Of a DNA stretch of 64,000 bases, positions 25,609-45,444 are shown one piece after another (within the stretch, counting starts at the first letter, position 1; each line of letters begins with the position of its first letter). Under the pieces are notes generated by a model. It did no database searches. It worked only from the letters and a program-made list of their open reading frames with translations, and had not been told where the DNA came from. This DNA is from Gammaproteobacteria bacterium (lineage in GTDB: Bacteria; Pseudomonadota; Gammaproteobacteria; SZUA-229), in NCBI GenBank assembly GCA_015488885.1, contig WFMW01000020.1, positions 221-64,220 of the forward strand, read 5' to 3'. The translations under genes were made by a program, and so were the position numbers.

Positions 25609-25624
25609 CCTGACAGGCTATTTC

Positions 25625-25654: not shown

Positions 25655-25884
25655 AATAAGGGTAGCTGTTTACCTGCGGTTGAAGGTAAACATCAATCGT
25701 GTTTTTTATTCTGGTAATACGTCGTCTTTATCCACAGGTCCGCCACGGCATGCCGATTCACCGATGGACCTGTAAGGATTTCTTCTGAAATAAAAACGGG
25801 CAGGGGATGCCCGATAAAAATGAAAAAAATAATAACAGTTAACGTTTTAACCTCGATATGAGGCTTAACAAGAGGTAAGTAATA

Positions 25885-27201: not shown

Positions 27202-27408
27202 CGGCTGTTGCAACGCTTGATTAACATGCAGCAGGTAACAGGCAGACTATTCTCAGGCTGTCCGGGGTGTTTTACCCGGGCAGTTCTGTCTGTGTGTATT
27301 ATCTACCTGTATTATTGCTTAGTAACCATTCTGGCAGTAATTTTTAATCAATCATGCAACAAAAATAAAACGTCTTATACCGGTAATTGTATAAGGCGTT
27401 TTCTGCTA

Positions 27409-30400
27409 ATGTTCGACAACTACCAAACCGTCAGTCATTACCGGAAAACGTTAATAAAGTATCTAACCACATTCATTTGTCTATTAACCGGGTTTAATGT
27501 ATTTGCGATAACGCCACCTGGTACACTGATTAGCAATACCGCAACTGCCAGTTTTAATTATCTGGCTAATGCAGCAACCGCCAGCAGTAACACGGTAAAT
27601 GTAAGCAGTACCATTATTAAAACACCATCATCCATTCAGTTATATCAATACGCACCTGGTGGCGGTGAGATTGCTATTCCTGTTGTCACGCAATATGCAA
27701 ACAGTGGCTCAACCAGTGCCAGTTTTATTGTCTCCCCGGATCCACAGGTTCCTCAACCGGGTGCTGCACCTGTAACCATAAATCCACATACCCCAGTGGC
27801 TTTAAATAAAGTTAATGCCTACAGCACCGGCGAACCGGTATTTATACAGTTGACTGATAAGGATCAGAATTTAAACCCGGCACAGAAAGAAACCGTTACT
27901 CTCGAAGTGAGTAGTTCAGCGGGTGACAGGGAAGTGATTAAATTAACCGAAACCACCGTTAACAGCGGTGAGTTTAGCGGCTATATTCAATCGACAGCAA
28001 ACCCTGTCACCCAATATGACGGCTTATTAACCCTGGGCGAAGGCACTAAGGTAACGGCAAAATATACCGATAAATATGATAGTACAGATATAAGTATTGC
28101 CGATTCACAGGCCGATCCGTTTGGCCGGGTGTTCAGTAGTGTGGATGGCAGCTTGCAGAACGGAGCAGTGGTAACACTGTTTGATAGCAACGGTATTCCG
28201 GCCAGGGTATTTGGTGATGACGGGGTAAGCACTTTCAGTAATCCGGTTGTCACTGGTAGCACAGTAACCGATAGTGGTGGAACGATTTATCATTTTCCAG
28301 AAGGTGAATACCGTTTCCCGCGTCTTGCAGCCGGTCATTATATCTTGAAGGTGACACCACCACCAGGGTTTGCTGCGCCATCACAGAGCAATGAACAGGC
28401 ATTACAGAAACTTTCTGGTGCACCCTATGCGCTGGTTGCCAGTGCCTCATTTGCGCAATCCTTTAATCTTGTTGCCGGGCCGCCATTACATGTGGATATA
28501 CCCATTGACCCATTGACATCCATACTGGCGATTGAAAAAACTGCTGCAAAGGAAAATGTAGCCAGGGGTGAATTTGTTGCCTATACATTAAAACTGGATA
28601 ATATTGATGCTACTGCAGCATCGCATAATATTGTTGTCACCGATACTCTGCCACCGGGGTTACGTTATCAACGCGGTTCGGTTACTTATGACGGTACAGG
28701 TGGAAACGATCCGATTGTTTCCGCGGATGGGCGTACCCTGGCGTTTACTATCGGCTCACTGGCACCAAAATCTTCGACACAGATAAAGTATGTAACAGAA
28801 ATTACGGTTGCGACACCATTGGGCAAAGCAGTCAATCATGTGTTTGCAGAAGATGATCGGCACATAAAATCGAATACTGCATTAGCTGCTATTATGGTAA
28901 ACGAAGACTTATTTTCCAGCCATAGTTTTATTGCTGGACGTGTCATTGTCGGTGGTTGTAATACACAGAGTGTTACCGCTGATCCTGGATTGCCAGCAGC
29001 TCGTGTGTTAATGGAGGATGGTCGTTATGCGGTAACCGATGATAACGGGCGTTTTCATTTTGAAGGGATAACACCTGGCAGCCATGTTGTACAACTGGAT
29101 AAGGATAGCATTCCAGATAATTACCAGGTGATAGATTGTGTTAAAAACACTCGGTTTGCCGGTACCCCTTATTCACAGTTTGTTGATATCCAGGGTGGGT
29201 CACTATGGCGTACCGATTTTCATATTAAACAAAAGCCTCCCTTAATCGGCACCAGTTCTGTTTATATACAGAGTAACGTGACGGCTGAAAATAATATTCA
29301 ATACACAGTTAATATGCAGAATGGAAAAATACCGGTGAAAAATTATCGGTTAATTATTAATTTACCTGCAGGCATGACGTATATTCCAGCCAGCAGTCAG
29401 CTTGATGGGCATAATATAAAAGAACCTTATGTGAACGATAATATTCTCATTTATCGCCTCGGCGATCCTGGTAGTAACTGGCAGAAAAAACTGGTATTTC
29501 GTGGGCATGTAAAAAACGGGGCAGAGGGCGGTCTGATAACCACAGCAGTAGTTATGCTGGATACTTCATTGAAGAAAAATATTCGTTCAATACCCGTTAA
29601 AAATAAATTACAGGTGGAACCTGGTCATATTGATAAAAAATCCATTTCCTATCGCACCTACTTCGAACCCATGGGTGCTGCGCTATCCACTACATCAAGA
29701 AAGGATTTGCAGCTGGTAATAAAAAAACTGGGTGATGTACGTATCAGTCATAGTGAAGTAAAAGCTTATACGGATAATAAGCCAGTTAAACCCCGCAGCC
29801 AGTGGTTATATAAAAATAATAAAACCCTGTCGATGGCACGTGCCAGAGTGCTTGGCGATTATTTGACTAAAAAGTTAAATATAGATAAAAAAGCCATTAC
29901 CCTGATGCCGGAAGGTAGTAGCCACCCGTTAATGAAAAATGATTCCATGGAAGGTCGTGCCAGGAATCGTCGCGCCGATTTAATTTTACATACCAGTAAA
30001 ATTACCGATCCAGAAAAAATTGACCTGCTTCGTTCAAAAAGTGAGATAGGAAAAATAAACTTAAAGGGGCAGCCAAATTATAAAGGGGAACCAAATTATA
30101 AAGGGGAACCAAATTATAAAGGGGAACCAAATTATAAAGGGGAACCAAATTATAAAATCAATAAAAACTATAAAATCAATAAACTGATTGAAACGCCTGA
30201 TATTTCCCAGCAACGTGATATCAGTAATTTTGATGAGATATGGATAAAAACTCAGAAGCCGGGTTATAAATGGTTAATGCCGGATGTAAATTTTTCACCT
30301 TCGCAGTCTTCAGTCAATATTGCTATTAAACATAAACCTGCTGATCATTTTGAGATGCGCTTAAATGGTAAATTAATCAATCCGTTATTTTACTTTGGTG

Positions 30401-33342
30401 CAATAAAAAATAAACAGGGTACGGTTGCTCGTAGTTACTGGCAGGGGGTGTATTTGAATGCGGGAAATAATCACTTTGAATTTATAGTAAAGGACAATAA
30501 CGGTAAAGTTATTCGTCGTATGCAACGTGATATTGTGTTTGCTGGTGTTCCTGTGCGCGCACAACTGGCGGAGAAATATTCCCGTTTAATTGCTGATGGT
30601 CGTCATAGCCCGGTTATTGCCATAAAGGTATTTGATAAAAACGGCTTCCCGGCCAGGCCTGGTTCGCGCGGTAAATTCGCAGTAGCACCGCCATTCTTAC
30701 CACAACAGGAAGTTAAAGCGCTTCAGTTTAACCGTTTGTCAGGGCTGAATCGGAAACTGCCTGAATATGTTGTCGGGGCTAATGGGCTGGCATATATTGT
30801 GTTAGAGCCAACAACCACAACAGGTAAGGTGGATATAAAACTACCTTTTAGCGGACGTAGGAAAGTTCATATTCAAACCTGGTTGCAGCCTGAAGTACGC
30901 GACTGGGTGATGGTGGGGCTAGTAGAAGGGACAGCTGGATATAACCATATTTCGGGTCATCAGCAATCACCTGTCGGCAGCGATATAAAAGACGGTTATT
31001 ATAGCAATGGAAAAATGGCATTTTATGCTAAGGGAAGAATAAAAGGCAAATGGTTGTTAACTACAAAATACAATACATCAAAGCATCGTATCGCTGGTAA
31101 CAATCGACTTAATCAGTTAATTGATCCGAACACGTATTACACTATTTATGGTGATACTTCGCGCCAGCGTTTTGATGCCTCAAGTGCAGATAAACTGTAT
31201 ATAAAAATAGAGCGTGAAAAGTTTTATGCTTTATATGGCGATATGGATACCGGACTTAATGTCACCGATTTATCTAAATTTAGCCGACCTATGACCGGGT
31301 TTAAGTCAGCAGGTGATTTCAAAACATTATCTTATACAGCCTTTGCAGCAGAAAATAAAAATAACTTTGTTAAAGATGAAATACAGGGACAGGGAATTTC
31401 AGGTCTGTACCATCTGTCGGCCAGAAATATTACTATCAACAGTGATACCATTACCATTGAAACCCGTGATCGTTTTCGCAGTGAAATTATTCTTAATACA
31501 CAAACATTACGGCGTTATCTCGATTACACTATTGATTATCAGGCTGGAACCATTTACTTTCGGCACCCGATAGCAAGCCGTGATGAAAACTTTAACCCTG
31601 TTTTTATTGTTGCTGATTACGAAGTTGAAACCCCGGTAACAGGTGCTATAACCGCAGGTGGACGTGTTGCCGGTAAATTTGCCCAGGGTCGGCTTGACGT
31701 CGGTGGCAGTATTATCCATGATGGCAGTTATCAGGCAAAAGGTAATTTATATGGTGTTGATGCAAAAATTGAACTGGATAAGCAAACCGAAATAAAACTG
31801 GAAGTGGCAAGCAGTAAGGTTAATCACAGGCGTAAATCCGTAACCGGGAGTGCTTATTCCGCACAGATTGTCCATGGTGGTGACCGGCTTAAAGCTCGTG
31901 CCTATGCAAAATTACAGGATACAGATTTTGGCCTGGGGCAACAATCAATAAGTCAGTCTGGAACCAGGAAAATGGGTGTGGAAGGGAGTTACCAACTACA
32001 CGGGAATGCCTCACTAGATGCAACTTTTTATCATGAAAACAATCTGGCTACTGCGGCCAGTCGCAATGTTGCACAAACCGGTATTCGTTATGGTAATAAC
32101 AGCTACGCATTAAACGCAGGCGCAAAAATAGCCCATGATAAAGATAGCACTGGCAAAATCAGTGATTCAAATCTACTGATTCTGGGAGCCTCAAAAAATC
32201 TGCTGGATAATGTAATGAAACTGCACGGTGCAGCTGAAATTGCACTGGGCCAGAATAATGCCAACCCCGATCATCCATCACGTTATATTCTGGGGGCAGA
32301 TTATTTTGTTACACCTAAGGTTGATCTGTTTGCGGATAATGAGTGGACATTTGGCAAAAAACAGAACACCCAGATGAGTAAAGCCGGGCTGCGTTCGACC
32401 CCATGGACAGGCGCACAGCTGAACACTGCCATCAACCAGCAGAATAATGAAAATGGCATCCGTTCCTTTGCGACCATGGGTTTGACACAGTCATTCACGC
32501 TTAATAAACGTTGGAGTGGTGATGTGGCCATTGACCAGTCGAGAACGATACGTCATCCAGGTGCTAAACCGTTCTATAAAAATGTACCCATAGCACAGGG
32601 GGCGAAGGATGATTTTGTTGCGGTTTCGGTGGGTACTACCTATCATGCCGAAACGTATACCGTCAATGACCGGCTGGAATTTCGTCATGCCGACACCGAA
32701 AATAAAGTTGGTCTGCTGGCCAACTGGGAACATTATCTAAATCAGGGTACAGGCTATTCTGCCAGTACCAGACTGTTTCAGACGAAACGTGCTAATGGCA
32801 GCAAACTACTCGATGGTGATGTGCGCTTTTCACTTGCTTTTCGCCCACTGCTATCTGCGTGGATAGTATTTAACCGGCTGGATTTTAAATTTAATTCTAC
32901 AACAGATTTCACCGGTCTGACTAACCGCCAGCGAAAACTAATTGATAACCTTGCAGCCAATTATCTGGTCGATCAGCGTAATCAGCTGGCCTTTAATCTT
33001 GGCATAAAATACGTTGTTGATAATATCGATGCGAAAGAATATAACGCGATGACGTATCTATTTGGCAGTGAGTATCGTCACGACCTGAATGATCGGTTTG
33101 ACGCGGGTATTCATGCAAATGCCCTGTACTCAGCAAATTCATCGATATTGAAATATGCCAATGGTGTATCGCTGGGCTGGAATATGAAACGTAATATCTG
33201 GTTGAGCGTGGGTTACAATATCAGCGGTTTTGATGATAACGATTTTAGTGCAGCGGGTTACAGTGCACGCGGCCCCTATATCCGCTTTCGCATGAAATTT
33301 GATCAGGATACAGCAGCCAGTATTAAACACTGGCTTAATTAG
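27409..33342 (+). CDS. giant (~1980-2044 aa) cell-envelope protein: signal peptide, DUF11/CnaB-like repeats, OmpA-like peptidoglycan-binding domain, hexapeptide tandem repeats, ~1000-aa beta-rich C-terminal region
   Basis: The ORF track gives 27208..33342 with a TTG start. ATG 27409 is preferred because it yields a classical signal peptide (MFDNYQTVSHYRKTLIKYLTTFICLLTGFNVFA|ITPPGTLISNTATASFNY) and the same mature N-terminus as the two upstream paralogs. DUF11 motifs (…VAYTLKLDNIDATAASHNIVVTDTLPPGLRYQRGSVTYDG). A CnaB/prealbumin-like module (…ARVLMEDGRYAVTDDNGRFHFEGITPGSHVV). OmpA_C motif (…SMEGRARNRRADLIL). The C-terminus ends with an OMP-like amphipathic strand (YIRFRMKF) plus a short tail. 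Confidence 0.85.
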   Translation: MFDNYQTVSHYRKTLIKYLTTFICLLTGFNVFAITPPGTLISNTATASFNYLANAATASSNTVNVSSTIIKTPSSIQLYQYAPGGGEIAIPVVTQYANSGSTSASFIVSPDPQVPQPGAAPVTINPHTPVALNKVNAYSTGEPVFIQLTDKDQNLNPAQKETVTLEVSSSAGDREVIKLTETTVNSGEFSGYIQSTANPVTQYDGLLTLGEGTKVTAKYTDKYDSTDISIADSQADPFGRVFSSVDGSLQNGAVVTLFDSNGIPARVFGDDGVSTFSNPVVTGSTVTDSGGTIYHFPEGEYRFPRLAAGHYILKVTPPPGFAAPSQSNEQALQKLSGAPYALVASASFAQSFNLVAGPPLHVDIPIDPLTSILAIEKTAAKENVARGEFVAYTLKLDNIDATAASHNIVVTDTLPPGLRYQRGSVTYDGTGGNDPIVSADGRTLAFTIGSLAPKSSTQIKYVTEITVATPLGKAVNHVFAEDDRHIKSNTALAAIMVNEDLFSSHSFIAGRVIVGGCNTQSVTADPGLPAARVLMEDGRYAVTDDNGRFHFEGITPGSHVVQLDKDSIPDNYQVIDCVKNTRFAGTPYSQFVDIQGGSLWRTDFHIKQKPPLIGTSSVYIQSNVTAENNIQYTVNMQNGKIPVKNYRLIINLPAGMTYIPASSQLDGHNIKEPYVNDNILIYRLGDPGSNWQKKLVFRGHVKNGAEGGLITTAVVMLDTSLKKNIRSIPVKNKLQVEPGHIDKKSISYRTYFEPMGAALSTTSRKDLQLVIKKLGDVRISHSEVKAYTDNKPVKPRSQWLYKNNKTLSMARARVLGDYLTKKLNIDKKAITLMPEGSSHPLMKNDSMEGRARNRRADLILHTSKITDPEKIDLLRSKSEIGKINLKGQPNYKGEPNYKGEPNYKGEPNYKGEPNYKINKNYKINKLIETPDISQQRDISNFDEIWIKTQKPGYKWLMPDVNFSPSQSSVNIAIKHKPADHFEMRLNGKLINPLFYFGAIKNKQGTVARSYWQGVYLNAGNNHFEFIVKDNNGKVIRRMQRDIVFAGVPVRAQLAEKYSRLIADGRHSPVIAIKVFDKNGFPARPGSRGKFAVAPPFLPQQEVKALQFNRLSGLNRKLPEYVVGANGLAYIVLEPTTTTGKVDIKLPFSGRRKVHIQTWLQPEVRDWVMVGLVEGTAGYNHISGHQQSPVGSDIKDGYYSNGKMAFYAKGRIKGKWLLTTKYNTSKHRIAGNNRLNQLIDPNTYYTIYGDTSRQRFDASSADKLYIKIEREKFYALYGDMDTGLNVTDLSKFSRPMTGFKSAGDFKTLSYTAFAAENKNNFVKDEIQGQGISGLYHLSARNITINSDTITIETRDRFRSEIILNTQTLRRYLDYTIDYQAGTIYFRHPIASRDENFNPVFIVADYEVETPVTGAITAGGRVAGKFAQGRLDVGGSIIHDGSYQAKGNLYGVDAKIELDKQTEIKLEVASSKVNHRRKSVTGSAYSAQIVHGGDRLKARAYAKLQDTDFGLGQQSISQSGTRKMGVEGSYQLHGNASLDATFYHENNLATAASRNVAQTGIRYGNNSYALNAGAKIAHDKDSTGKISDSNLLILGASKNLLDNVMKLHGAAEIALGQNNANPDHPSRYILGADYFVTPKVDLFADNEWTFGKKQNTQMSKAGLRSTPWTGAQLNTAINQQNNENGIRSFATMGLTQSFTLNKRWSGDVAIDQSRTIRHPGAKPFYKNVPIAQGAKDDFVAVSVGTTYHAETYTVNDRLEFRHADTENKVGLLANWEHYLNQGTGYSASTRLFQTKRANGSKLLDGDVRFSLAFRPLLSAWIVFNRLDFKFNSTTDFTGLTNRQRKLIDNLAANYLVDQRNQLAFNLGIKYVVDNIDAKEYNAMTYLFGSEYRHDLNDRFDAGIHANALYSANSSILKYANGVSLGWNMKRNIWLSVGYNISGFDDNDFSAAGYSARGPYIRFRMKFDQDTAASIKHWLN
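30066..30191. repeat. seven in-frame 18-bp tandem units (GQPNYK, GEPNYK x4, INKNYK x2). Four GEPNYK units are nucleotide-identical.
   Basis: The unit gggcagccaaattataaa is followed by ggggaaccaaattataaa repeated four times, then atcaataaaaactataaa twice. Confidence 0.95.
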
Positions 33343-33529
33343 GGAAACGCCGAATACCCTTTGCTCATAAAAAAAACTTATCGAAATATACAAGACACTT
33401 AGGTTTTTCAGGGGCGGTTTTATAGAGAAATTGCTCTGAAAAGAGTATAGTACGCACACTCTGCACGCATGGTCTATATAAATATCGATGACCGAGCTGC
33501 GCAATAAGATTTTTTTATATAGAATAAAT

Positions 33530-33576
33530 TATTGATTTATCTATTGATTTATCTATTAATTCATATCTATTAATTT
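33530..33576. promoter_or_regulatory. AT-rich direct repeats (tattgatttatc x2, tattaatt x2) about 30-80 bp upstream of the qmoA-like start; candidate operator/promoter element
   Basis: Direct repeats seen in the sequence. Their position relative to the operon start suggests a regulatory role. No consensus match is claimed. Confidence 0.3.
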
Positions 33577-33608
33577 AAACCTGACACAAGATCCTTTGGA
33601 GGAATAAG

Positions 33609-34895
33609 ATGTCGGATATCGTTGCAACCAATCAGACTATTCTGGTTGTCGGTGGTGGCATTAGCGGCATGACGGCTGCATTAGAAGCTGCTGAAATCGG
33701 CAAACAGGTCATCGTCATTGAAAAATCACCATCAATCGGCGGTCGAGTGACCAGGCTCTATAAATATTTCCCTAAATTATGTTTTCCGACCTGTGGTCAG
33801 GAAATTAATCAACGGCGTATGGCGGCTAATCCGAACATCACTGTGCTGACCATGGCCGAAGTCACCGATCTGCAGGGCGATGCCGGAAATTATACGGCAA
33901 CAGTAAAAATCAGCCCGCGTTATGTGAATGCAAACTGTACGGCCTGCGGTGATTGTGCCAGTGTTGTCGAAGCGGAGCTTGATGACCCTCACAATTATAA
34001 TATGAGCAAACACAAAGGCGCTTATCTGCCACATAATATGGCGATGCCAAAACGTTATGTGCTGGCACCGGAAATTATTGCTACCGATGATGCCGAAAAA
34101 GCCAAAGCAGCCTGCAAATTTGATGCCATTGATCTCGATATGCAGGAAGAGACACTGGAACTGAAAGCCGGTGCTGTGGTCTGGGCAACAGGCTGGCGTC
34201 CATTTGATGCCGCAAAAATACAGCCCTATGGTTATGACCGCATTGATAATGTAATTTCCAGCGTTGAGTTTGAACGTATGATGGATCCATTTGGCCCTAC
34301 TGGCGGTAAACTGGTTCGTCCTTCCGATGGTAAAGAGGCTAAAAATATCGCCTTTATTCAATGTGCTGGTTCACGTGACCGTAATTACCTGAAACACTGC
34401 TCACGCATCTGCTGCATGGCCTCTTTGAAACAGAGTACCTATGTCACCGAAAAATTTGGCGATGAAGCCGATGTCAGCATTTATTATATTGATATTCGCG
34501 CCATTGACCGGTTTGATAATTTTTATCAACGGGTTAAGGAAAATCCCAACGTCACCTTTATCAAGTCGAAAGTGGCGAATATTGTCGAAAATAAAAAGAA
34601 CGGGAATCCGGTTCTTAACGGGGTTAATGTAGAAGGTTATCATCGTTATGCCAATGAACATGACATGGTGGTACTGGCCGTGGGTATGCAACCGAGTGTG
34701 GATAAAAACGCATTCCCGATAGAACTTAAATTAAACGATGAAGGTTTCATTGAAAGTGATGAAGCCAATGGTGGTATCTTTGCGGCAGGCTGTTCAGCGG
34801 ATGCGCTCGATGTGAATCGCGCCGTCCAGAGTGCAACCGCATCTGCATTAAAAGCCATTCAGGTTGTTAATCGTGTAGCACAGGCGGAGGGTTAA
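33609..34895 (+). CDS. HdrA-like FAD flavoprotein, QmoA-type
   Basis: 428 aa. N-terminal FAD fold (VVGGGISGMTAALEAAE). HdrA cysteine signature C-x-G-x-R-D-x6-C-S-x2-C-C (IQCAGSRDRNYLKHCSRICCMAS). No ferredoxin or MvhD domain, i.e. the QmoA architecture. Confidence 0.8.
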   Translation: MSDIVATNQTILVVGGGISGMTAALEAAEIGKQVIVIEKSPSIGGRVTRLYKYFPKLCFPTCGQEINQRRMAANPNITVLTMAEVTDLQGDAGNYTATVKISPRYVNANCTACGDCASVVEAELDDPHNYNMSKHKGAYLPHNMAMPKRYVLAPEIIATDDAEKAKAACKFDAIDLDMQEETLELKAGAVVWATGWRPFDAAKIQPYGYDRIDNVISSVEFERMMDPFGPTGGKLVRPSDGKEAKNIAFIQCAGSRDRNYLKHCSRICCMASLKQSTYVTEKFGDEADVSIYYIDIRAIDRFDNFYQRVKENPNVTFIKSKVANIVENKKNGNPVLNGVNVEGYHRYANEHDMVVLAVGMQPSVDKNAFPIELKLNDEGFIESDEANGGIFAAGCSADALDVNRAVQSATASALKAIQVVNRVAQAEG

Positions 34896-34898
34896 ACG

Positions 34899-37154
34899 AT
34901 GGCTGATGAAAAGAAGATAGCTGTTGAAAAGAAGATTGGTGCTTATATCTGTAATGGATGTGGCATTGGTGAACGTCTGGATTCCAGCCAGCTGGAAACA
35001 ACAGCTAAACGTGATGGCAAAGCCGCTATCTGCCAGCAACATGATTTTTTATGTTCCGAAGCGGGTGTAAAAATGATTCAGGATGATATCGATAATGAAG
35101 GCGTCAATCGTGTGGTTATTGCCGCCTGTTCACGACGGGCGAAAACCGAAGCCTTTGCCTTCAAAGATGTGGTCGTTATTCGTAGCAACCTGCGTGAAGG
35201 TGTTATCTGGGTGCGGCCTGATGAAGATGATCAGCGTGAAACCACGCAGGAAATGGCTGACGACTATATCCGCATGGGTTGTGCTGAAGCAAAATATGCC
35301 AATATACCTTCAGCCAGTGGCCAGCAGAGTGTGAATAAAAATATTCTGATTGCCGGTGGTGGTATTTCTGGTATGACCGCCGCGCTGGAAGCATCCAAAG
35401 CCGGTTATCCCTGTACGATAGTCGAGAAATCTTCGGCACTCGGTGGTGCAACGGCACAGCTGTATAAAAAGATTCCAACCAGAGCGCCTTATGCCGACCC
35501 GGAAGATACCGGTGTTGATGCAATGATTGCTGCCGTCGAAGCGGATAGCAATATTACTGTTTTTCTGAATTCAACCTTAACCAATACAGCAGGTGCACCG
35601 GGTCGCTTCACTGCCGACATTAGTACCGAAAGTGGTAGCACCGAAACAAAAGAATTTGGTGCGATTGTTCAGGCATCGGGTTTCACCCCTTATGATGCGA
35701 ATAATTTACCCGAATTTGCCTACGGTAAAAATAAAGATGTGGTCACCCAGATGGAACTGGAAGCCCTGGCTAAAACGGCCAATGGTGGTGCCATTAAACG
35801 TCCATCCGATGGTAAGGAAGTATCCAGTGTATTATTTATTCAATGTGCCGGTCAACGCAGCACGAAGGCAGGACATTTAGAGCACTGTTCCGGTTATTGT
35901 TGCAGTGCGTCCATCAAGGAAGCCATGTACTTTAAAGATCAGAATACTGCTATTGATACCACTGTGTTATATACCGACTTACGTACACCGGGTGCCGGTG
36001 GTGAAAACTTTTACCGTAGCGGGCAAAACAAAGGCGTTATATTTACCAAAGGTATTGCCTCAGAAGTTGTCGATGGGGCTAACCCGACCGTTAAGTTCAA
36101 GGATTTAATTCTTGATGAAGACGTGAGTATGGAGGTTGACCTGGTGGTGCTGGCGACAGGAATGGTGGCTAATGCTGGTCAGCCAACACGTGCTGAAATT
36201 ACCCTTAGCGAAAATGAAGCCAAGGAAGCGGGCACAGAATATAAAGTCTCGGTCGAATCCATATTGAATCTGGATTATCGTCAGGGTAAAGATGTGCCGC
36301 ATATGACAAACGGTTTTGCGGATTCACATTTTATCTGTTTCCCTTATGAAACCCAGCGTACCGGTATTTATACTGCTGGCCCCACCCGTCGCCCTATGGA
36401 TACCAGACAGGCGATGGACGATGCAACCGGTGCTGCAATGAAAGCTATATCCGAAGCGGAAAATGCAGGCCTGGGTAAAGCCGCGCATCCACGTGTTGCA
36501 GATCTGAGTTTCCCCAGTTTCCGTCAGGAAGGTTGCACCCAGTGTAAACGTTGCACGGTTGAATGCCCGTTCGGTGCTATCAATGAAACGGAAGATGGTT
36601 ATCCAGAGTTTAATGAATCACGTTGTCGTCGTTGCGGCACCTGTATGGGCGCCTGTCCGGTAAGGGTGATTTCATTTGAAAACTATTCTATTGATACTGT
36701 CGGGCAACAGTTGAAAGCGGTGGATATTCCTGATGAATTTGATGAAAAACCGCGTATTCTGGTGCTTGCCTGTGAGAATGATGCTTATCCGGCTCTGGAT
36801 ATGGCAGCACAAAATCGGCTTGAATACAGTGCCTTTACCCGTATTATTCCGGTTCGTTGTCTGGGGTCAGTCAGTTTAAGCTGGATTACCGATTCCATGA
36901 ACAGCGGTTATGATGGTGTCATTTTAATGGGTTGTCCGAGTGGTGATGATTATCAGTGTCACTTTGTGAAAGGTTCAGCCATGGCGCAGGAACGGATGAG
37001 TAAAGTGGGGGATACACTGGAAACCTTAAGTCTGGAAAAAGAACGTGTACAGACTTATGAAATATCCATTACCGATATTCAGAAAGTTCCACAGTTAATT
37101 AATGAAATGGCCGAAACCATCGAGAAGATTGGTATGAGCCCATTCAAGTTTTAG
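34899..37154 (+). CDS. HdrA-like flavoprotein fused to two [4Fe-4S] ferredoxin motifs and a C-terminal MvhD-like domain, QmoB-type
   Basis: 751 aa. Second FAD fold (IAGGGISGMTAALEASK). HdrA signature (IQCAGQRSTKAGHLEHCSGYCCSAS). CTQCKRCTVECP and CRRCGTCMGACP. MvhD/FlpD-like C-terminus (ILVLACENDAYPALD…IPVRCLGSV…DGVILMGCPSGDDYQCHFVKG). Confidence 0.82.
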   Translation: MADEKKIAVEKKIGAYICNGCGIGERLDSSQLETTAKRDGKAAICQQHDFLCSEAGVKMIQDDIDNEGVNRVVIAACSRRAKTEAFAFKDVVVIRSNLREGVIWVRPDEDDQRETTQEMADDYIRMGCAEAKYANIPSASGQQSVNKNILIAGGGISGMTAALEASKAGYPCTIVEKSSALGGATAQLYKKIPTRAPYADPEDTGVDAMIAAVEADSNITVFLNSTLTNTAGAPGRFTADISTESGSTETKEFGAIVQASGFTPYDANNLPEFAYGKNKDVVTQMELEALAKTANGGAIKRPSDGKEVSSVLFIQCAGQRSTKAGHLEHCSGYCCSASIKEAMYFKDQNTAIDTTVLYTDLRTPGAGGENFYRSGQNKGVIFTKGIASEVVDGANPTVKFKDLILDEDVSMEVDLVVLATGMVANAGQPTRAEITLSENEAKEAGTEYKVSVESILNLDYRQGKDVPHMTNGFADSHFICFPYETQRTGIYTAGPTRRPMDTRQAMDDATGAAMKAISEAENAGLGKAAHPRVADLSFPSFRQEGCTQCKRCTVECPFGAINETEDGYPEFNESRCRRCGTCMGACPVRVISFENYSIDTVGQQLKAVDIPDEFDEKPRILVLACENDAYPALDMAAQNRLEYSAFTRIIPVRCLGSVSLSWITDSMNSGYDGVILMGCPSGDDYQCHFVKGSAMAQERMSKVGDTLETLSLEKERVQTYEISITDIQKVPQLINEMAETIEKIGMSPFKF

Positions 37155-37163
37155 GAGTCTTCC

Positions 37164-37781
37164 ATGAGTAATCTTAATACCGGCATGGTTGAAAAATACC
37201 GCAATAATTTCCTTAACGAAGTTGAGGCCAATGTTGAAGAAGGTGAATGGGTAAAAATGTGTATGCAGTGTGGTGTGTGCTCAGGCTCATGCCCACTTGG
37301 TCCATACTGGGATCATCCACCTCAGGAACTGTTTATGATGATTCGTGCAGGCAAGCGCGAAGAAGTTCTTGAATCAACATCAATGTGGATGTGTACCTCC
37401 TGCTATAACTGTCTGGTACGTTGTCCTCGTGAGTTGCCTATTACCCATATCATGCATGGGCTGGCGCATTATGCTACGCGTCTGGGTATCGAACCCAAAG
37501 GTCAGCCTACCCGGCAGTTTGCCCAGTTATTCTGGGATAATCTGGCTAAAAATGGCCGTGTCAATGAGCTTTGGTTAGGCGTGAATCTGTATTTCATGAA
37601 CGGTTTTGTCAATGGCATTAAAGTAGCCATGGGAATGGCGGGTATTGGTCTTGGTATGTATAAATCGGGCAGGCTGAGTATTAAAGAACTGATTGGTGGT
37701 CACACAGTTAAAGACAAGAGCGGCTTTAAAGCAATGATCAAAAAAGCACAGGAGCTGGAATCAGCTCGTGTAGACAAATAA
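37164..37781 (+). CDS. heterodisulfide reductase subunit C-like (2x[4Fe-4S])
   Basis: 205 aa with CMQCGVCSGSCP and CTSCYNCLVRCP motifs. Starts 10 bp after the upstream gene. Confidence 0.8.
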   Translation: MSNLNTGMVEKYRNNFLNEVEANVEEGEWVKMCMQCGVCSGSCPLGPYWDHPPQELFMMIRAGKREEVLESTSMWMCTSCYNCLVRCPRELPITHIMHGLAHYATRLGIEPKGQPTRQFAQLFWDNLAKNGRVNELWLGVNLYFMNGFVNGIKVAMGMAGIGLGMYKSGRLSIKELIGGHTVKDKSGFKAMIKKAQELESARVDK

Positions 37782-37794
37782 GGCAGGTATAGTA

Positions 37795-38691
37795 ATGTCA
37801 AAAGAATATTCATTTTATCCGGGTTGTTCCTCACAGGAAGGTGCATCTTCCTCGAATTATCTGAAGTCCGTCCAGTCTATGTGTGATGTGCTGGACATTA
37901 AACTTAACGTGATTCCAGACTGGAACTGCTGTTCTGCATCCATCGGTTATTGTGGTGGTGGTGAATTACCCCGACTGGCCCTGTCAGCACGTAATATCGC
38001 ACTTTCAGAAAAGCATAATCAGGGGCAGGATATTGTTGCTACCTGTGCCGCCTGCTGGTTAGCTACCAAAGAAACCCAGGAACGTCTGGATGATGATGCT
38101 GGATTAATGGATGAAACTAATCAGGCACTGGCCGAAGCAGGTCTGAAAATTGAAAATAAAACCAAAATTCGTCACATGGTTGAGGTGTTAATTGAAGACA
38201 TCGGCTATGAAGAAATGGGCAAACATGTCAGCAAACCTCTGGACGGCATTAAAATAGCCGGTTATGTAGGTTGCCAGACTAATCGTCCATTCGGTATTGA
38301 AGGTGAGTCGTTTGAAAATCCTAAATATCTGGATAAATTTATTGAAACTCTGGGGGCTGAGCCGGTTGAAAAATACGACAAAAAAGTGTCCTGCTGCGGC
38401 GGTGCACTGGCATTCTCCGAACCGGAAAAATCTCAGGCATTGATTAAAGACATTATTGAAGCCGCCTACGATGGTGGTGCAGATATGATTGTTACGCCGT
38501 GTCCGGTCTGTCAGATGAATGTCGAAGTGTATCAGGATAAGATTAATGCTACCTATGGTACTAAATTTAATATGCCGGTTACCTATTACAGCACCCTGAT
38601 GTCAGTCGCCTACGGTAAAAACAGCAAGCAGTCTGGTCTGAACGGGCAGATTATTAAAGCTAAAAAACTCGAGGAAGTTGCCAGTAAGTAA
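37795..38691 (+). CDS. heterodisulfide reductase subunit B-like (two CCG cysteine-rich domains)
   Basis: 298 aa with two Cys…CC…CxxC modules (GCSS…NCCSAS…ATCAAC and VGCQTN…SCCGGALAF…PCPVCQ). Confidence 0.8.
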   Translation: MSKEYSFYPGCSSQEGASSSNYLKSVQSMCDVLDIKLNVIPDWNCCSASIGYCGGGELPRLALSARNIALSEKHNQGQDIVATCAACWLATKETQERLDDDAGLMDETNQALAEAGLKIENKTKIRHMVEVLIEDIGYEEMGKHVSKPLDGIKIAGYVGCQTNRPFGIEGESFENPKYLDKFIETLGAEPVEKYDKKVSCCGGALAFSEPEKSQALIKDIIEAAYDGGADMIVTPCPVCQMNVEVYQDKINATYGTKFNMPVTYYSTLMSVAYGKNSKQSGLNGQIIKAKKLEEVASK

Positions 38692-38734: not shown

Positions 38735-38746
38735 CAATAAATAAAA

Positions 38747-38770
38747 AACCCGGTTAGCCGGGTTTTTTTA
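38747..38770 (+). terminator. rho-independent terminator closing the qmoAB-hdrCB-type operon
   Basis: aacccgg-ttag-ccgggtt hairpin (7-bp perfect stem) followed by ttttttt. Confidence 0.85.
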
Positions 38771-38857
38771 TGCCTTTTATTTTGGCCTGACAACGGTTTG
38801 TGTTACCTTTCTATTGCAGGCGTCTGAAATATTCGGGTTAGGGGTAAAAAGGGTAGT

Positions 38858-41348: not shown

Positions 41349-41619
41349 TAAACCAGTGTTTCATTGGTTTAACTTATCTAACGATTGCTGGTTAAAAAAG
41401 GTTCCCTGAAATGATATGCATCCTTGATATAAGGTAGGTGAGTATGTTGGAGAACGTAGACGCGTGAAGCTTATTATGTTGTTATAGATAACTTCTGACA
41501 AAGTACCATGCATCCACCTTGCAGGAATAGTGATATAGTAGGCATTCGGGTTAACAGGGCTATGTTGATGATATTTGTATGTTGCTATATTCTATGTCTG
41601 CCTCAATAATTTAGCTATT

Positions 41620-43164
41620 ATGTCAGAGATTGTTCTTGCCACTTTAAACGCGCGTTATATTCATACCGCTTTTGGTTTGCGTTATCTTTACGCCAACCTG
41701 GGTGAACTGCAATCGCGGTCGATGATAATGGAATTTACTATTCATCAGCGGCCACTGGATGTCGCGGAAAAACTGCTGGATCAAAATCCATCAATTATCG
41801 GTTTTGGTGTTTACATCTGGAATGTCGAGCAAATCAGTCAGGTCGTGGTGATTTTAAAACAGATCACGCCACAGATTATTATTGTATTGGGTGGTCCGGA
41901 GGTGAGCCACGGCAATGATTTGCCTGCGATGGCTGAAAGTGTCGATTATATTGTTCAGGGAGCAGGCGAAGTTGCATTGAGTGACCTGTGTCGGCAGATT
42001 CTATCCGGGCAACAGTCATCCATCAATACCTTCCCGGTTATCATTAAGGCGGCAGATATTTCTCTGGCACAGCTTGAGCTGCCATACCGGTTTTATAATG
42101 ATGAAGATATACAAAATCGTTTGATTTATGTGGAAGCGTCGCGAGGCTGTCCGTTCAAATGTGAATTCTGCCTGTCTTCGCTGGATAAAACTTCCCGGCC
42201 TTTTGAATTAGCGCGTTTTTTGCGCGAAATGGATAATCTGTATCAACGCGGTGCGCGTAATTTCAAATTTATCGACCGTACTTTTAACTTAAAAGTAAAT
42301 ACCAGCGTTAGCATACTGGAATTTTTTCTGCAGCGTTTGAGCGATGATCTGTATCTGCATTTCGAGGTTATTCCCGATAATCTGCCGGACAGGCTTAAAG
42401 CAGTTATTAGCAGGTTTCCCCGCCACTCCCTGCAGTTTGAAATAGGGGTACAGACTTTTGATCCACAGATTCAACAGCGTATCAGTCGGCGCCAGGATAA
42501 TGAAAAAACCCGGGCCAATCTGCGCTGGTTAAAACAATACACGCAGGCCTATATTCATGCCGACCTGATTTTTGGGCTGCCCGGCGATACGCTGGAAAAT
42601 TTCGCACAAAGTTTTGATCAACTGGTCGCCCTGCAGCCGGATGAAATTCAGCTGGGTATTCTGAAACGTCTGCGTGGCGCACCCATTAACCGGCATAGTG
42701 AGGCGTATCAACTAAAATACAATCCGCAGGCACCGTATAATATTTTAAGTACCAGCCTGATTAGCTATAAAACCATGCAGCGTGTGAACAGGTTTGCTTT
42801 CTACTGGGACAGAATCGCAAATTCAGGCCGTTTTCCGCATTGTCTGCCATTGATTTTACAGCAGCAGGCTTTTAACAATTTTCTGACTTTCAGCGATGCG
42901 ATCTATGACATCATTGGTAATAACTGGAAAATTTCATTGAAACGCTGGTTTATACTGATTAACAACTGGCTGGAACAGTCTGAGTCTGTCACGGAACAAC
43001 AGCGTTTGTCGGCACTGGAACGTGACTATCAACATTCGGGTGAGCGGGCTGCACTGCATACCCTGATCGAGCAAACCGAGAATGGGAAAACTGTCAGAAA
43101 ATCAAAAATCGGTGTGGCCAATAAACGTCAGCAACGGCAAATAACCGGTTCAGGCAGTGGCTGA
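41620..43164 (+). CDS. B12-binding-domain radical SAM protein (DUF4080 type)
   Basis: N-terminal B12-binding-like domain and a radical SAM CxxxCxxC (ASRGCPFKCEFC). A C-terminal extension typical of the DUF4080 family. The start was placed at MSEIVLAT…. Confidence 0.75.
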   Translation: MSEIVLATLNARYIHTAFGLRYLYANLGELQSRSMIMEFTIHQRPLDVAEKLLDQNPSIIGFGVYIWNVEQISQVVVILKQITPQIIIVLGGPEVSHGNDLPAMAESVDYIVQGAGEVALSDLCRQILSGQQSSINTFPVIIKAADISLAQLELPYRFYNDEDIQNRLIYVEASRGCPFKCEFCLSSLDKTSRPFELARFLREMDNLYQRGARNFKFIDRTFNLKVNTSVSILEFFLQRLSDDLYLHFEVIPDNLPDRLKAVISRFPRHSLQFEIGVQTFDPQIQQRISRRQDNEKTRANLRWLKQYTQAYIHADLIFGLPGDTLENFAQSFDQLVALQPDEIQLGILKRLRGAPINRHSEAYQLKYNPQAPYNILSTSLISYKTMQRVNRFAFYWDRIANSGRFPHCLPLILQQQAFNNFLTFSDAIYDIIGNNWKISLKRWFILINNWLEQSESVTEQQRLSALERDYQHSGERAALHTLIEQTENGKTVRKSKIGVANKRQQRQITGSGSG

Positions 43165-45444
43165 GGTAACCAGTTTTACACTTTCCACACTGTCGGTATC
43201 ATCCGTCACTGTTCCAATGATGACACTGTCGGGATAGCCCAGCTCAAGCAATTCATTCAGGCAGGTCTGCGCGTGACTGGCAGGGATGGCGGCCAGCAGG
43301 CCACCCGAGGTTTGCGGGTCGAACAGCATGGAAAAATGCAGGTGTTCACGTAAATGGCCGGGGTCTTTGATGGCCCGGCGCAGGCGCACATTCTGTTCCT
43401 GCAGGGAACTGAAAATACCGGCTTTTATCATCTCAAGTGCGCCATCCATAATCGGCAGGCTATCAAGATTGATGGTCACACTTTTTCCCGATGCGCGGGT
43501 CATTTCAACCAGGTGACCAAGCAGGCCGAAACCGGTTACATCGGTGCAGGCTGTGGCACCATGACGATGTAGGCAATGTCCGCCACGCTGGTTGGATAAC
43601 AACATGCTTTGCAAAGCGCGGTCAATCCAGCGGCCTTTTGCCTGCAGACGCATATCTGCTGCAAACAGGGTACCGGTACCCAGAGCCTTGGTTAATATCA
43701 ATACATCGCCGGCCTGCATACCGCTTTTGCGCATCACCTGTTCCGGCGTCACCAGGCCGGTAACTGACAGCCCGAAGGCGAGTTCTGCGCCTTCGCTGGA
43801 ATGACCGCCAACCAGTGCAGTATTGCTGGCATTTAATACATTTAAAGCACCTGACATAGTCTGAAACAGCTGGTCTTCTATCTGGCTTTCAATGCCATAG
43901 GGAATGGTGGCAATGGCCATCGCAGACTGGGTTTCGGCACCCATGGCAAAAATATCGCTTAACGCATGATTGGCTGCAATCTGGCCGAAAACATACGGGT
44001 CGTCGATAAAGCTGCGGAAATAATCGACACTTTGTACCACCAGCCTGCCTGGCGGGACTGAGGTGACAGCCGCATCATCCGGGTCTGCCAGGCCGATTAC
44101 AATATCATCACGCGAAACCGGTTGCAGGCGATTCACCACGCGGGATAAAACACTGCTGCCTACTTTGGCACCGCAACCGCCGCAACGCATGGCAATGGCA
44201 GAAATTTCATGTAATGTTTGGGTGTCCGTCATGGCCGCATTAATTACCGGCGGGGTGGTTTGCGACATGGCGGGCAGATCACTGAATTTTTTCATAAAAC
44301 GACGGTCAATCCAGTCTTTTATTTTCCATAGCCAGGCACCTTCCAGTGACCAGAAACTGTGCGAGGCAATCACATATTGATTACCTGTGGTAATAAGACC
44401 AAGAAAATTTTTCTGTGGAATATAGGCCTTCAGCGGTTTCCCCTGAATCATCTGTGCCAGATTATGTGCCAGTGGCGGCCCCTGACGCACCGCAAACACG
44501 CCTGATTTTGGTCGTGGGTGATGGACTGACGAGGCGATATCACCGGCGGCAAATACCTGCTTGTGCGAGGTTGATTGCAGGTAGTCATTAACACAGATAA
44601 AACCTTTATCATCGACATCGAGTTCGGCTTCGGCCAGCCATGCTGGTGCGCTGGCACTGGTTACCCATAACACGGCATTTGCCGGGTAGGACTGGTGATG
44701 CCTGCAGACCAGGGTATCGGCATTGACCTGTTCGACAAAATGTCTGAGGTGAAGCTGAATACCGCGTTGTTTGAGAATGCGGTTAAAACGTTTTCTCACC
44801 TGTTTATTGTGGGTGGGCAGAATGGTTTCACTGTCACAATATAAATCGATATGTAAAAACTGATCGCTACGTTTGTTTGCCTTTAATAAATGTTGCAGGC
44901 GATATTGTGTTGCCAGCGCCATTTCCACCCCACCGGCACCACCGCCAACAATGGCCAGATGAAACGGTTGTTCAGCATTGATATCAGCGTGAGTAATGGC
45001 ATCGCTGAGGCTTTGCCACTGTGTTAAAAATCGGTCAATCGGTTTAACCGGCAGGGTATAACGGTCGGCACCGGGGATATGTAAAGTGCCCGGGCGTGAG
45101 CCGATATTGATGGAGACAATATCAAAATGAATCGGCGGGCGGTCAGGGCAGATAAGCTGCTGGTTGGCCAGATCCAGTTGTTCAACTTCAGCGTGGTAAA
45201 TCCGCGCATGGGCAAACTGTGCCAGCGGACGTAAATCAATATGGGTTTCGTCGTAACTGTAATGACCGGCAATATAGCCCGGTAACATACCTGAATAAGG
45301 GGTATGGATATCACGCGTAATCAGCGTGAGGCGCAATCCGGGAACCGGACGCATGGCAAACTGTTTTAATACCGAAAGGTGGCTATGACCACCACCGACC
45401 AGAACAAGGTCTTTAACAACGGGGATGCTACTGGTCGTTTGCAT
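43150..45444 (-). CDS. selD: fusion of an FAD/NAD(P)-dependent pyridine-nucleotide-disulfide oxidoreductase with selenide, water dikinase (SelD)
   Basis: 764 aa. N-terminal Rossmann motifs (LVLVGGGHSH…, IVGGGAGGVE). C-terminal SelD with the MRCGGCGAKVG active-site segment (Cys, not Sec) and the PurM-like ATP-binding fold. Confidence 0.8.
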   Translation of the reverse strand: MQTTSSIPVVKDLVLVGGGHSHLSVLKQFAMRPVPGLRLTLITRDIHTPYSGMLPGYIAGHYSYDETHIDLRPLAQFAHARIYHAEVEQLDLANQQLICPDRPPIHFDIVSINIGSRPGTLHIPGADRYTLPVKPIDRFLTQWQSLSDAITHADINAEQPFHLAIVGGGAGGVEMALATQYRLQHLLKANKRSDQFLHIDLYCDSETILPTHNKQVRKRFNRILKQRGIQLHLRHFVEQVNADTLVCRHHQSYPANAVLWVTSASAPAWLAEAELDVDDKGFICVNDYLQSTSHKQVFAAGDIASSVHHPRPKSGVFAVRQGPPLAHNLAQMIQGKPLKAYIPQKNFLGLITTGNQYVIASHSFWSLEGAWLWKIKDWIDRRFMKKFSDLPAMSQTTPPVINAAMTDTQTLHEISAIAMRCGGCGAKVGSSVLSRVVNRLQPVSRDDIVIGLADPDDAAVTSVPPGRLVVQSVDYFRSFIDDPYVFGQIAANHALSDIFAMGAETQSAMAIATIPYGIESQIEDQLFQTMSGALNVLNASNTALVGGHSSEGAELAFGLSVTGLVTPEQVMRKSGMQAGDVLILTKALGTGTLFAADMRLQAKGRWIDRALQSMLLSNQRGGHCLHRHGATACTDVTGFGLLGHLVEMTRASGKSVTINLDSLPIMDGALEMIKAGIFSSLQEQNVRLRRAIKDPGHLREHLHFSMLFDPQTSGGLLAAIPASHAQTCLNELLELGYPDSVIIGTVTDDTDSVESVKLVTSATA

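Follow-up and report, generated by a model that had tools for sequence, protein, structure and literature searches.

The four-gene operon at positions 33609 to 38691 of the window (the whole stretch of DNA that was analysed, 64,000 nucleotides) is the QmoAB-HdrCB ('HdrAACB') electron-transfer module of sulfur-oxidising proteobacteria. It is ordinary and already known, since the module is well described and usually lies apart from the genes for APS reductase. The operon probably represents the sulfur oxidisers' form of Qmo, with AprBA as its presumed redox partner in indirect sulfite oxidation and a presumed oxidative direction. The module is present in hundreds of sulfur-oxidiser genomes and has been discussed in the literature since 2007; the window contributes one more orthologue.

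Proteobacterial sulfur oxidisers usually carry QmoAB-HdrBC (HdrAACB) (PMC10504309, PMC6397845, PMC10356861, PMC11237559), which the literature regards as functionally replacing AprM/QmoC. The vent gammaproteobacterium Thiolapillus brandeum, reported in 2014, carries unlinked qmoAB-hdrBC together with aprAB and sat, and has neither AprM nor QmoC (PMC4136832); in Sulfuricaulis, hdrAACB is distant from aprAB-sat (PMC5024460). AprM and QmoAB/HdrBC are complementary alternatives in symbionts (PMC11237559), and a further paper states that other sulfur-oxidising bacteria have QmoAB-HdrBC or AprM (PMC10504309).

Architecture and control elements of the operon

Open reading frames define four co-directional genes on the + strand in the order qmoA-qmoB-hdrC-hdrB, separated by 3, 9 and 13 bp. 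The operon is autonomous, having its own promoter-like element, ribosome-binding site (RBS) and a strong terminator. Its features are the following:

33423..33451, + strand: TAGAGA - 17 nt - TATAGT, a promoter-like element some 160 nt ahead of qmoA (consensus scan)
33538..33577, + strand: three tandem 12-14-nt repeats, TATCTATT(G/A)ATT(T/C)A, in the 5' leader (repeat search)
33598..33603, + strand: RBS GGAGGA, 5 nt before the qmoA ATG (read directly; conserved in relatives)
33609..34895, + strand: qmoA, 428 aa, HdrA-core FAD/[4Fe-4S] flavoprotein
34899..37154, + strand: qmoB, 751 aa, Cys-rich at the N-terminus, with an FAD core of the HdrA type, a ferredoxin domain (2 x [4Fe-4S]) and an MvhD/FlpD domain at the C-terminus
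37164..37781, + strand: hdrC, 205 aa, 2 x [4Fe-4S], without a membrane domain
37795..38691, + strand: hdrB, 298 aa, two complete CCG domains
38743..38776, + strand: intrinsic-terminator-like hairpin, 11-bp stem with 5 G-C pairs, followed by a T-run (terminator scan)

Domains, motifs and gene order uphold the identification of the products as QmoA, QmoB, HdrC and HdrB, which had been proposed from the sequence alone. None of the four proteins has lost a cofactor cysteine. QmoA has Pfam FAD/Pyr_redox domains, and its cluster motif reads C252AGSRD-x6-C264SRIC268C269 in the translation. The C-terminal part of QmoB matches FlpD/MvhD (PF02662, E 2.8e-40), in addition to Fer4 domains (2 x 4Fe-4S ferredoxin), and close homologues are annotated as QmoB by JGI. 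The sequence-only reading had assigned the signature C-x-G-x-R-D-x6-8-C-S-x2-C-C to both HdrA-like proteins. This is exact for QmoA, but QmoB reads C316AGQRS-x8-C330SGYC334C335, with R-S in place of R-D; R-S is the usual state among gammaproteobacterial relatives. The [4Fe-4S] motif of QmoB is lost in 16 of 81 relatives, so the electron path via QmoB varies across the family.

HdrC contains Fer4_8/Fer4_17 domains and scores 80 bits with CoB_CoM_SS_C; its translation shows the motifs C33xxC36xxC39xxxC43P and C77xxC80xxC83xxxC87P. HdrB matches PF02754 (CCG) in two stretches (E 3.5e-19), with the motifs C11-x33-C45C46-x37-C84xxC87 and C160-x39-C200C201-x34-C236xxC239. Cysteine conservation is complete (100%) for the ten residues of QmoA across 73 species, for the eight of HdrC, and for the ten motif residues of HdrB across 72 species; the CCG domains of HdrB, an alignment of which had been suggested as a check, are thus intact. 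The genes are 62-95% identical to their orthologues in 80 other species, and with the invariant cluster-binding cysteines of QmoA, HdrC and HdrB this places them far above chance. No membrane helix is predicted in any of the four proteins, in keeping with the earlier suggestion that the module may be soluble.

NCBIfam equivalog models are matched far below their cut-offs throughout: HdrA2 at 357 bits (QmoA, model positions 136-562) and 398 bits against 1100, HdrC at 80 against 160, and HdrB at 160 against 345. The best NCBIfam match of HdrB is MFR_anch_SdhE, with 176 bits, also under its cut-off.

The putative promoter at 33423..33451 is conserved: the regions upstream of the operon in the five nearest relatives (L005-L008 and L090) also contain the block TTTATAGAGAAA...GTATAGTAC. 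The tandem leader repeats are a possible regulator site; beyond the window they are conserved in L007 only, as a single copy. The leader was also considered as the site of a riboswitch or another known RNA; this was discarded, since an Rfam search of the whole window returned one tRNA only.

Family placement and genomic context

The QmoB tree, a quick Kimura-distance neighbour-joining tree with bootstrap rather than a maximum-likelihood tree, groups the window's protein with QmoB of Thioploca, Thiothrix, Sedimenticola, Thiosymbion and Sulfuricella with 100% bootstrap support. A wider clade, also at 100%, includes the QmoB of sulfate reducers, while HdrA2 and HdrA fall outside; the phylogenetic check thus places QmoB within Qmo and not with methanogen-type HdrA. 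The clade of the window's QmoB is distinct from a Clostridia-labelled group. Identities of QmoB are 85-89% to uncultured Thiotrichaceae-like MAGs and 63-72% to the named sulfur-oxidiser genera; the nearest other families are the QmoB proteins of sulfate reducers, at 47-48%. Among structures in the PDB, methanogen HdrA is more similar than sHdrA (6tjr), with 259 (5odc) against 107 bits for QmoA and 231 against 120 bits for QmoB.

Relatives occur in at least 598 species genomes. Loci were compared for the 80 best species, with genes mapped by all-ORF BLAST; these include Thiotrichaceae, Thiothrix, Thioploca, Sedimenticola, Thiodiazotropha, Thiosymbion and Sulfuricella. All four genes stand in this order in 72 of these 80 loci; in the others a contig end interrupts the operon. 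Within 10 kb, aprBA is found in 7 of the 80, and the operon is unlinked to apr in the other 73; the flanks searched add up to about 1 Mb, for which our own estimate of the chance expectation is about 0.5-1 locus (one or two apr loci in a genome of 3-4 Mb), so the 7 loci count in favour of the link with AprBA. Stand-alone placement is therefore the norm for the QmoAB-HdrCB family. The premise that Gram-negative sulfur metabolisers normally have QmoABC linked to aprBA, which had made the arrangement appear unusual, is contradicted by the literature, by the number of genomes and by this low frequency of linkage. For annotation, it follows that qmoAB-hdrCB without nearby aprBA in Gammaproteobacteria should not count as anomalous.

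Other neighbours recur in the compared loci. SoeAB-like genes lie upstream of the operon in 7 loci, cbbQ neighbours it in 28 and cbbO in 17; together these indicate an autotrophic sulfur-oxidiser context. Glutaredoxin and cysG are found upstream in two complete-genome relatives. In the window's own clade, made up of uncultured Thiotrichaceae-like Gammaproteobacteria whose QmoB is 85% or more identical, the operon is always isolated, and its surroundings showed no genes of the apr, soe or cbb type.

The flanks in the window are as first described, a surface-protein locus (a 2044-aa DUF11/OmpA protein) upstream and an LMF-like membrane protein of the LMF1 family downstream. Both were considered as partners and rejected. 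The terminator-like hairpin after hdrB intervenes before the LMF1 gene, and LMF1 is downstream in no relative, so a role as membrane or quinone partner was dismissed; the upstream block is common to L007 only, which points to lineage synteny. The lack of adjacent QmoC, aprBA and sat is upheld on a larger scale: genes for apr, sat, dsr, sox and qmoC are absent from the 64-kb window and from the 10 kb past either end, where the source scaffolds contain housekeeping genes only. An aprBA/sat locus immediately outside the window was thereby discarded, and aprBA and sat are also absent from the 10-kb flanks of the operon in the six closest relatives.

Proposed electron path and competing explanations

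In the most probable mode of action, the cytoplasmic APS reductase AprBA would convert sulfite and AMP to APS with release of two electrons, after which Sat would yield sulfate and ATP. AprB would dock on QmoA; the electrons would then travel along the FAD and Fe-S centres in QmoA and QmoB, cross the two [4Fe-4S] clusters of HdrC and arrive at the pair of CCG-bound clusters in HdrB, the site at which an acceptor would be reduced. The earlier statement that the electron partner is unknown was overstated, given the literature on QmoAB-HdrBC in sulfur oxidisers and the distribution in relatives; AprBA is the accepted presumptive partner. [quoted passage not shown] No biochemical study of a sulfur-oxidiser QmoAB-HdrCB complex was found in the literature.

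HdrB could pass the electrons to the quinone pool through peripheral contact with the membrane, in the manner of SdhE-type CCG subunits; the other candidate acceptor is a thiol/disulfide, for example DsrC. We lean slightly towards quinone. Membrane coupling is considered impossible without QmoC in one paper (PMC10504309). No quinone site is evident without QmoC, which counts against the main reading, as do the loss of the QmoB [4Fe-4S] motif in part of the family and the absence of aprBA and sat from the window, the 10 kb past its ends and the flanks of the closest relatives. The wider relevance lies in a question for the whole family, namely what HdrB reduces in systems without QmoC and whether energy is conserved there. 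The cultured carriers Thiolapillus, Sedimenticola, Sulfuricella and Thiobacillus denitrificans are far better suited to addressing the acceptor of HdrB.

An unlikely alternative is that the module acts without AprBA, as a soluble disulfide reductase with flavin-based electron bifurcation or confurcation. HdrB would then reduce a disulfide or trisulfide of a protein (e.g. DsrC) or of a low-molecular-weight compound, and the flavins of QmoA and QmoB would couple this to ferredoxin or NAD(P). The combination of two HdrA-type flavoproteins with complete HdrCB resembles methanogen HdrABC, and the lack of membrane helices, the lack of linkage to apr (seen at 73 of 80 loci and in the whole clade to which the window belongs) and the glutaredoxin and cysG genes of the two complete-genome relatives would all suit such an enzyme; bifurcation or confurcation has also been proposed earlier for Qmo (PMC3333476, PMC4949241). 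However, the operon has no conserved neighbour that would encode a donor or acceptor (hydrogenase, formate dehydrogenase, flx, ferredoxin), and Qmo/Hdr or AprM is reported together with AprBA in sulfur oxidisers (PMC11237559, PMC10504309). From standard potentials we estimate that APS/sulfite as donor (-60 mV) is unable, under standard conditions, to support reduction of ferredoxin or NAD+ with a quinone or disulfide as co-acceptor. The 16 of 81 relatives that have lost the cluster of QmoB also speak against a conserved site of bifurcation in that protein.

It is improbable that the window's clade operates without AprBA altogether, the operon then being a free-standing module with another donor or acceptor, which might for instance reduce quinone peripherally through an SdhE-like HdrB, or serve as a thiol/disulfide reductase with flavin-based bifurcation.

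The reverse direction, in which the module would feed electrons to AprBA for APS reduction in a sulfate reducer or sulfur disproportionator, is very improbable. The architecture does equal that of QmoAB-HdrBC in Gram-positive sulfate reducers (PMC10504309, PMC3333476), but the close relatives are all Gammaproteobacteria or Betaproteobacteria of sulfur-oxidising groups, RuBisCO activase and SoeAB-like genes occur in the neighbourhoods, and the window's QmoB stands apart from the Clostridia-labelled group.

Membership of the sHdr (hdrC1B1A-hyp-hdrC2B2 with LbpA) or Flx-Hdr (flxABCD-hdrABC) systems, both of which likewise have HdrA-, HdrB- and HdrC-type subunits, is effectively ruled out by gene order and content (a single HdrCB pair beside two HdrA paralogues, of which one carries a fused MvhD, and neither hyp nor lbpA nor flxABCD anywhere in the 64 kb of the window), by the lower PDB scores with sHdrA and by the fully supported position of QmoB, so that the original placement outside both types holds.

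Comparison with known systems

The sHdr system comprises one short HdrA (about 340 aa), two HdrC/HdrB pairs, hyp and a nearby lipoate-binding protein, a set that does not occur in the window. In Flx-Hdr, flxABCD is adjacent to a single HdrA and FlxD (MvhD) is separate, whereas the window has no flx genes and MvhD is fused to QmoB.

The SdhE-type CCG anchor of type E succinate:quinone and methylmenaquinol:fumarate oxidoreductases, the best match of HdrB (176 bits, E 1.4e-51), connects Fe-S subunits to quinone without transmembrane helices. The score compares with a cut-off of 500 and the operon is accompanied by no SdhA/SdhB genes, so the likeness may be read as a functional analogy only.

The nearest solved structures are those of methanogen HdrABC-MvhAGD (PDB 5odc, 8rvu, 7bkb). 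Common to both are the HdrA-type FAD/[4Fe-4S] core, an MvhD-like domain, HdrC with 2 x [4Fe-4S] and HdrB with two CCG domains. In the window, by contrast, HdrA is split and duplicated (QmoA, QmoB), MvhD is fused to QmoB, and both a hydrogenase and a CoM/CoB context are lacking.

QmoABC of sulfate reducers and Chlorobi (Desulfovibrio, Ca. Desulfofervidus, Chlorobaculum) has homologous QmoA and QmoB with an identical architecture, and AprBA is the presumed partner there as well. The QmoB of Ca. Desulfofervidus is 47% identical to the window's protein over its full length and shares its 100%-supported clade. Unlike QmoABC, the window operon lacks the HdrE-like haem-b membrane domain of QmoC and has separate HdrC and HdrB instead; the NF038018 qmoC model matches only residues 16-103 of HdrC, with 52 bits against a cut-off of 300. 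The sat-aprBA-qmo linkage is also missing, and the presumed electron flow is oxidative.

The closest system is QmoAB-HdrBC (HdrAACB) of proteobacterial sulfur oxidisers, with examples in Thiolapillus brandeum Hiromi 1, Sulfuricaulis limicola (SCL_2523-2520), Sedimenticola, Ca. Thiodiazotropha, Ca. Thiosymbion and Ca. Taurinisymbion. Like the window operon, it has no adjacent QmoC or AprM and is usually unlinked to aprBA. The cbbQ/cbbO, SoeAB-like and aprBA neighbours that are common in other lineages are missing from the window's clade, flanking genes being lineage-specific. The four genes, their order and tight spacing, the domains and the cofactor motifs are all shared, and the window operon shows no structural difference from this system.

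Architecture and cofactor motifs of the operon

The sequence-only reading described a tightly spaced four-gene operon, and the ORFs, domains and intergenic gaps (3, 9 and 13 bp) all bear this out.

Features of the qmoA-qmoB-hdrC-hdrB operon (protein domains from Pfam and NCBIfam)
33423–33451, +: promoter-like TAGAGA-17-TATAGT, inside a block conserved across the five closest relatives
5 nt 5′ of the qmoA ATG, +: ribosome-binding site GGAGGA, read from the sequence
33609–34895, +: qmoA, 428 aa, FAD protein with HdrA core
34899–37154, +: qmoB, 751 aa, HdrA core, two 4Fe-4S ferredoxin motifs and C-terminal FlpD/MvhD domain (E 2.8e-40)
37164–37781, +: hdrC, 205 aa, HdrC-type 2 x [4Fe-4S] protein
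37795–38691, +: hdrB, 298 aa, HdrB-type protein with two CCG domains
38743–38776, +: hairpin with 11-bp stem and T-run, 3′ of hdrB

With a ribosome-binding site, a promoter-like element and a 3′ hairpin, the four genes look like a self-contained operon, judging from the nucleotide sequence. The qmoA leader (33538–33577) also holds three tandem repeats of 12–14 nt, TATCTATT(G/A)ATT(T/C)A, present as one copy in the closest relative (L007) and absent from the other relatives; they are possibly the site of a lineage-specific regulator.

In translation, the cofactor motifs are complete in HdrC (C33xxCxxCxxxCP and C77xxCxxCxxxCP), HdrB (C11-x33-CC-x37-CxxC and C160-x39-CC-x34-CxxC), QmoA (CAGSRD-x6-CSRICC) and QmoB (CAGQRS-x8-CSGYCC). 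The C-x-G-x-R-D signature attributed earlier to both HdrA-like proteins thus holds for QmoA, while QmoB has R-S, the sole deviation from that description. No segment of the four proteins is hydrophobic enough for a transmembrane helix (highest 19-residue Kyte-Doolittle mean, 1.41). Among relatives, the cluster-binding cysteines of QmoA (10), HdrC (8) and HdrB (10) are 100% conserved, and the QmoB motif CxGxR(S/D)...CSxxCC is retained in 65 of 81 sequences. The other 16, of Sedimenticola and Thiodiazotropha types, have lost all four cysteines (L029, L031, L036, L039, L046, L047, L049, L050, L052, L054, L058, L060, L072, L073, L077 and L083); here CAGQRS...CSGxCC (residues 316–335 of the window's QmoB) becomes N.GQ.S...HSG.GD, with the remaining protein conserved.

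Family placement and distribution

Domains, motifs and family placement agree that the proteins are QmoAB and HdrCB, as first proposed. The nearest solved structures, in a PDB set containing no Qmo structure, are those of methanogen HdrA (5odc and 8rvu; 231–259 bits); sHdrA (6tjr) scores only 107–120 bits. HMMER, run exhaustively against 1.84 billion cluster representatives, gave 914 matches at E ≤ 1e-30. Beyond the window's own QmoB family, the next full-length matches (47–48% identity, 720–740 bits) include the Ca. Desulfofervidus auxilii ‘quinone-interacting membrane-bound oxidoreductase complex subunit beta’ and clusters named QmoB by JGI, followed by Desulfovibrio QmoB and Methanothrix HdrA2 at about 260–280 bits. 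In a neighbour-joining tree of QmoB (Kimura distances, 691 columns, 100 bootstraps), the window protein groups at 100% support with those of Thioploca, Thiothrix, Sedimenticola, Thiosymbion and Sulfuricella. This sulfur-oxidizer clade and sulfate-reducer QmoB together form a 100% clade, with HdrA2, Asgard HdrA and a Clostridia/Thermoproteota group outside. An sHdr or Flx-Hdr type is ruled out by this placement, by the low sHdrA scores and by gene content, there being no second HdrCB pair, hyp, lbpA or flxABCD in the window.

The family is abundant. The QmoB-like protein occurs in more than 100 database clusters (71–90% identity) from Gammaproteobacteria and Thiotrichales MAGs, many labelled QmoB by JGI, and among genomes scanned at one per species, at least 598 contain a relative. 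The best 80 loci belong to uncultured Thiotrichaceae (88%), Thiohalobacter, Thiohalomonadales, Sedimenticola, Ca. Thiodiazotropha, Ca. Thiosymbion, Thiothrix, Thioploca, Ca. Marithrix, sponge symbionts and the betaproteobacterial Sulfuricella and Sulfurimicrobium. The complete set in the same order is found in 72 of the 80 loci, the other eight being truncated by contig ends.

Genomic neighbourhood of the operon

As first noted, aprBA, sat and qmoC do not adjoin the operon; apr, sat, dsr, sox, soe and qmoC genes are all missing from the 64-kb window. Searches by tblastn with AprA, AprB, SoeAB-like, CbbQ and CxxCxxCC proteins from related loci gave no match in the window or in 10 kb past each end, taken from the source scaffolds; hence, no aprBA or sat was found immediately outside. 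On the 5′ side lie two paralogous hypothetical proteins and a 2044-aa DUF11/OmpA protein, on the 3′ side an LMF1-family membrane protein (in no relative is its gene found downstream), an EAL protein, a B12-binding radical SAM protein and a Pyr_redox_2-SelD fusion. The remainder is housekeeping and signalling (pheT, pepN, GGDEF/EAL proteins, aroG, purN/purM, hda, acnB, serS and others).

The 5′ block (23840–33342, +) comprises the paralogues (415 and 438 aa) and a 169-aa protein, all three lacking a Pfam domain, then the DUF11/OmpA/CarboxypepD_reg protein; it is conserved in L007 only (64–75% identity). The 764-aa fusion (43150–45444, −) joins a pyridine-nucleotide-disulfide oxidoreductase to an AIRS/AIRS_C pair of the selenide, water dikinase type. 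Its gene overlaps the end of the radical SAM/DUF4080 gene (41575–43164) by 15 bp, and the fusion also occurs near the operon in L008 (76% identity). The sequence derives from hydrothermal-vent metagenome assemblies (ENA ERZ23495603; NCBI MAG GCA_027071015.1). In ERZ23495603, scaffold_24 (110,941 bp) carries the left part (1–30000) and scaffold_45 (92,519 bp) the qmo part (24900–64000); by coordinates, each scaffold would overlap much of the window, which suggests two co-assembled strains or a window taken from another, more contiguous assembly.

All flanking ORFs of the relatives, drawn from a total of about 1 Mb of flanking sequence, were clustered and representatives annotated. Only seven of the 80 loci have aprB-aprA within 10 kb, never directly adjacent (about 2.4–5.9 kb away) and on the opposite strand in six; by our own estimate this is roughly ten-fold above chance proximity, for loci that are phylogenetically non-independent. 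In the window's clade (L005–L008 and two relatives with complete genomes, CP070838.1 of 2.8 Mb and a 2.5-Mb contig from ENA), the operon is isolated in every case, with flanks varying from genome to genome. For the QmoAB-HdrCB family, standing alone is thus the rule and no anomaly.

Other neighbours recur. A protein of about 310 aa (PF03692; CxxCxxCC, putatively Zn/Fe-chelating) lies 3′ of aprB-aprA in seven loci (L024 (17813–21409), L047, L050, L051, L060, L073, L032), and 1–2 kb from hdrB in L019, L043 and L072, loci in which aprBA is out of reach. Upstream in seven loci (L019, L032, L034, L038, L040, L042, L043; e.g. L040:6150–9053, −) is a cytoplasmic PhsA/PsrA-like molybdopterin oxidoreductase (967 aa, no signal peptide) with a 243-aa NrfC/DsrO-like Fe-S subunit. 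The pair fits the cytoplasmic sulfite-oxidizing SoeAB, an assignment by inference given the lack of a SoeAB model in NCBIfam. The RuBisCO activase gene cbbQ is divergent and upstream of qmoA in 28 of 80 loci (median gap about 290 bp), followed by cbbO in 17; this pairing (within L010–L084, e.g. L069:5146–5973, −) spans several orders and is absent from the window's clade. Fructose-bisphosphate aldolase and pyruvate kinase lie 3′ of the operon in five loci. In the closest complete-genome relative (L090:15733–20543, −, in CP070838.1), an Isp-type [NiFe] hydrogenase cluster (small subunit, 219-aa protein, HdrD-like CCG/Fer4 protein, large subunit) lies 2 kb 3′ of hdrB, past an NnrS gene; a glutaredoxin-cysG pair is upstream in L090 and L091.

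Proposed electron transfer and known systems

The premise that Gram-negative sulfur metabolizers normally have QmoABC linked to aprBA is outdated by published QmoAB-HdrBC/HdrAACB clusters. ‘QmoABC/QmoAB(-HdrBC)’ was already named as AprB docking partner by Meyer and Kuever 2008 (PMC2211403). The vent gammaproteobacterium Thiolapillus brandeum has AprAB and Sat and no AprM/QmoABC (Nunoura et al. 2014, PMC4136832), and in Sulfuricaulis limicola hdrAACB (SCL_2523-2520) is about 45 genes away from aprAB-sat (PMC5024460). HdrAACB/QmoABHdrCB is listed among standard sulfur-oxidation genes (Watanabe et al. 2019, PMC6397845; Neukirchen et al. also belongs to this earlier literature), and a 2024 study comparing sulfur-oxidizing symbionts treats AprM and QmoAB/HdrBC as functionally complementary (PMC11237559). 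Far from being unusual, the window operon is an orthologue of this described, very widespread module in its usual unlinked state. Novelty would remain only if the window's clade proved to be without AprBA, which is unlikely.

In the best-supported reading, QmoAB-HdrCB would take both electrons from the AprBA-catalysed oxidation of sulfite and AMP to APS. QmoA would be the docking subunit, by analogy with Desulfovibrio QmoABC, the only system where docking has been seen, as binding only (PMC3333476). Electrons would then travel via the flavins and Fe-S clusters of QmoA and QmoB to HdrC, and on to the CCG clusters of HdrB. Two flavins of the HdrA type make bifurcation possible in principle, but by our estimate from standard potentials a donor at −60 mV cannot reduce ferredoxin or NAD+ with quinone as co-acceptor, and the loss of the QmoB cluster in 16 of 81 relatives also argues against it.

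For electrons delivered to HdrB from AprBA, some papers assume the quinone pool as acceptor (PMC10356861, PMC11636981), while one deems membrane coupling without QmoC impossible (PMC10504309). The lack of membrane helices bears on this choice. So does the best-scoring NCBIfam model for HdrB, at 176 bits the SdhE-type CCG ‘anchor’ of quinone-linked type E fumarate reductases (methanogen HdrB model, 160 bits), which leaves a peripheral quinone link conceivable. Like that anchor, the window HdrB is a CCG protein, but both scores fall far below the cut-offs.
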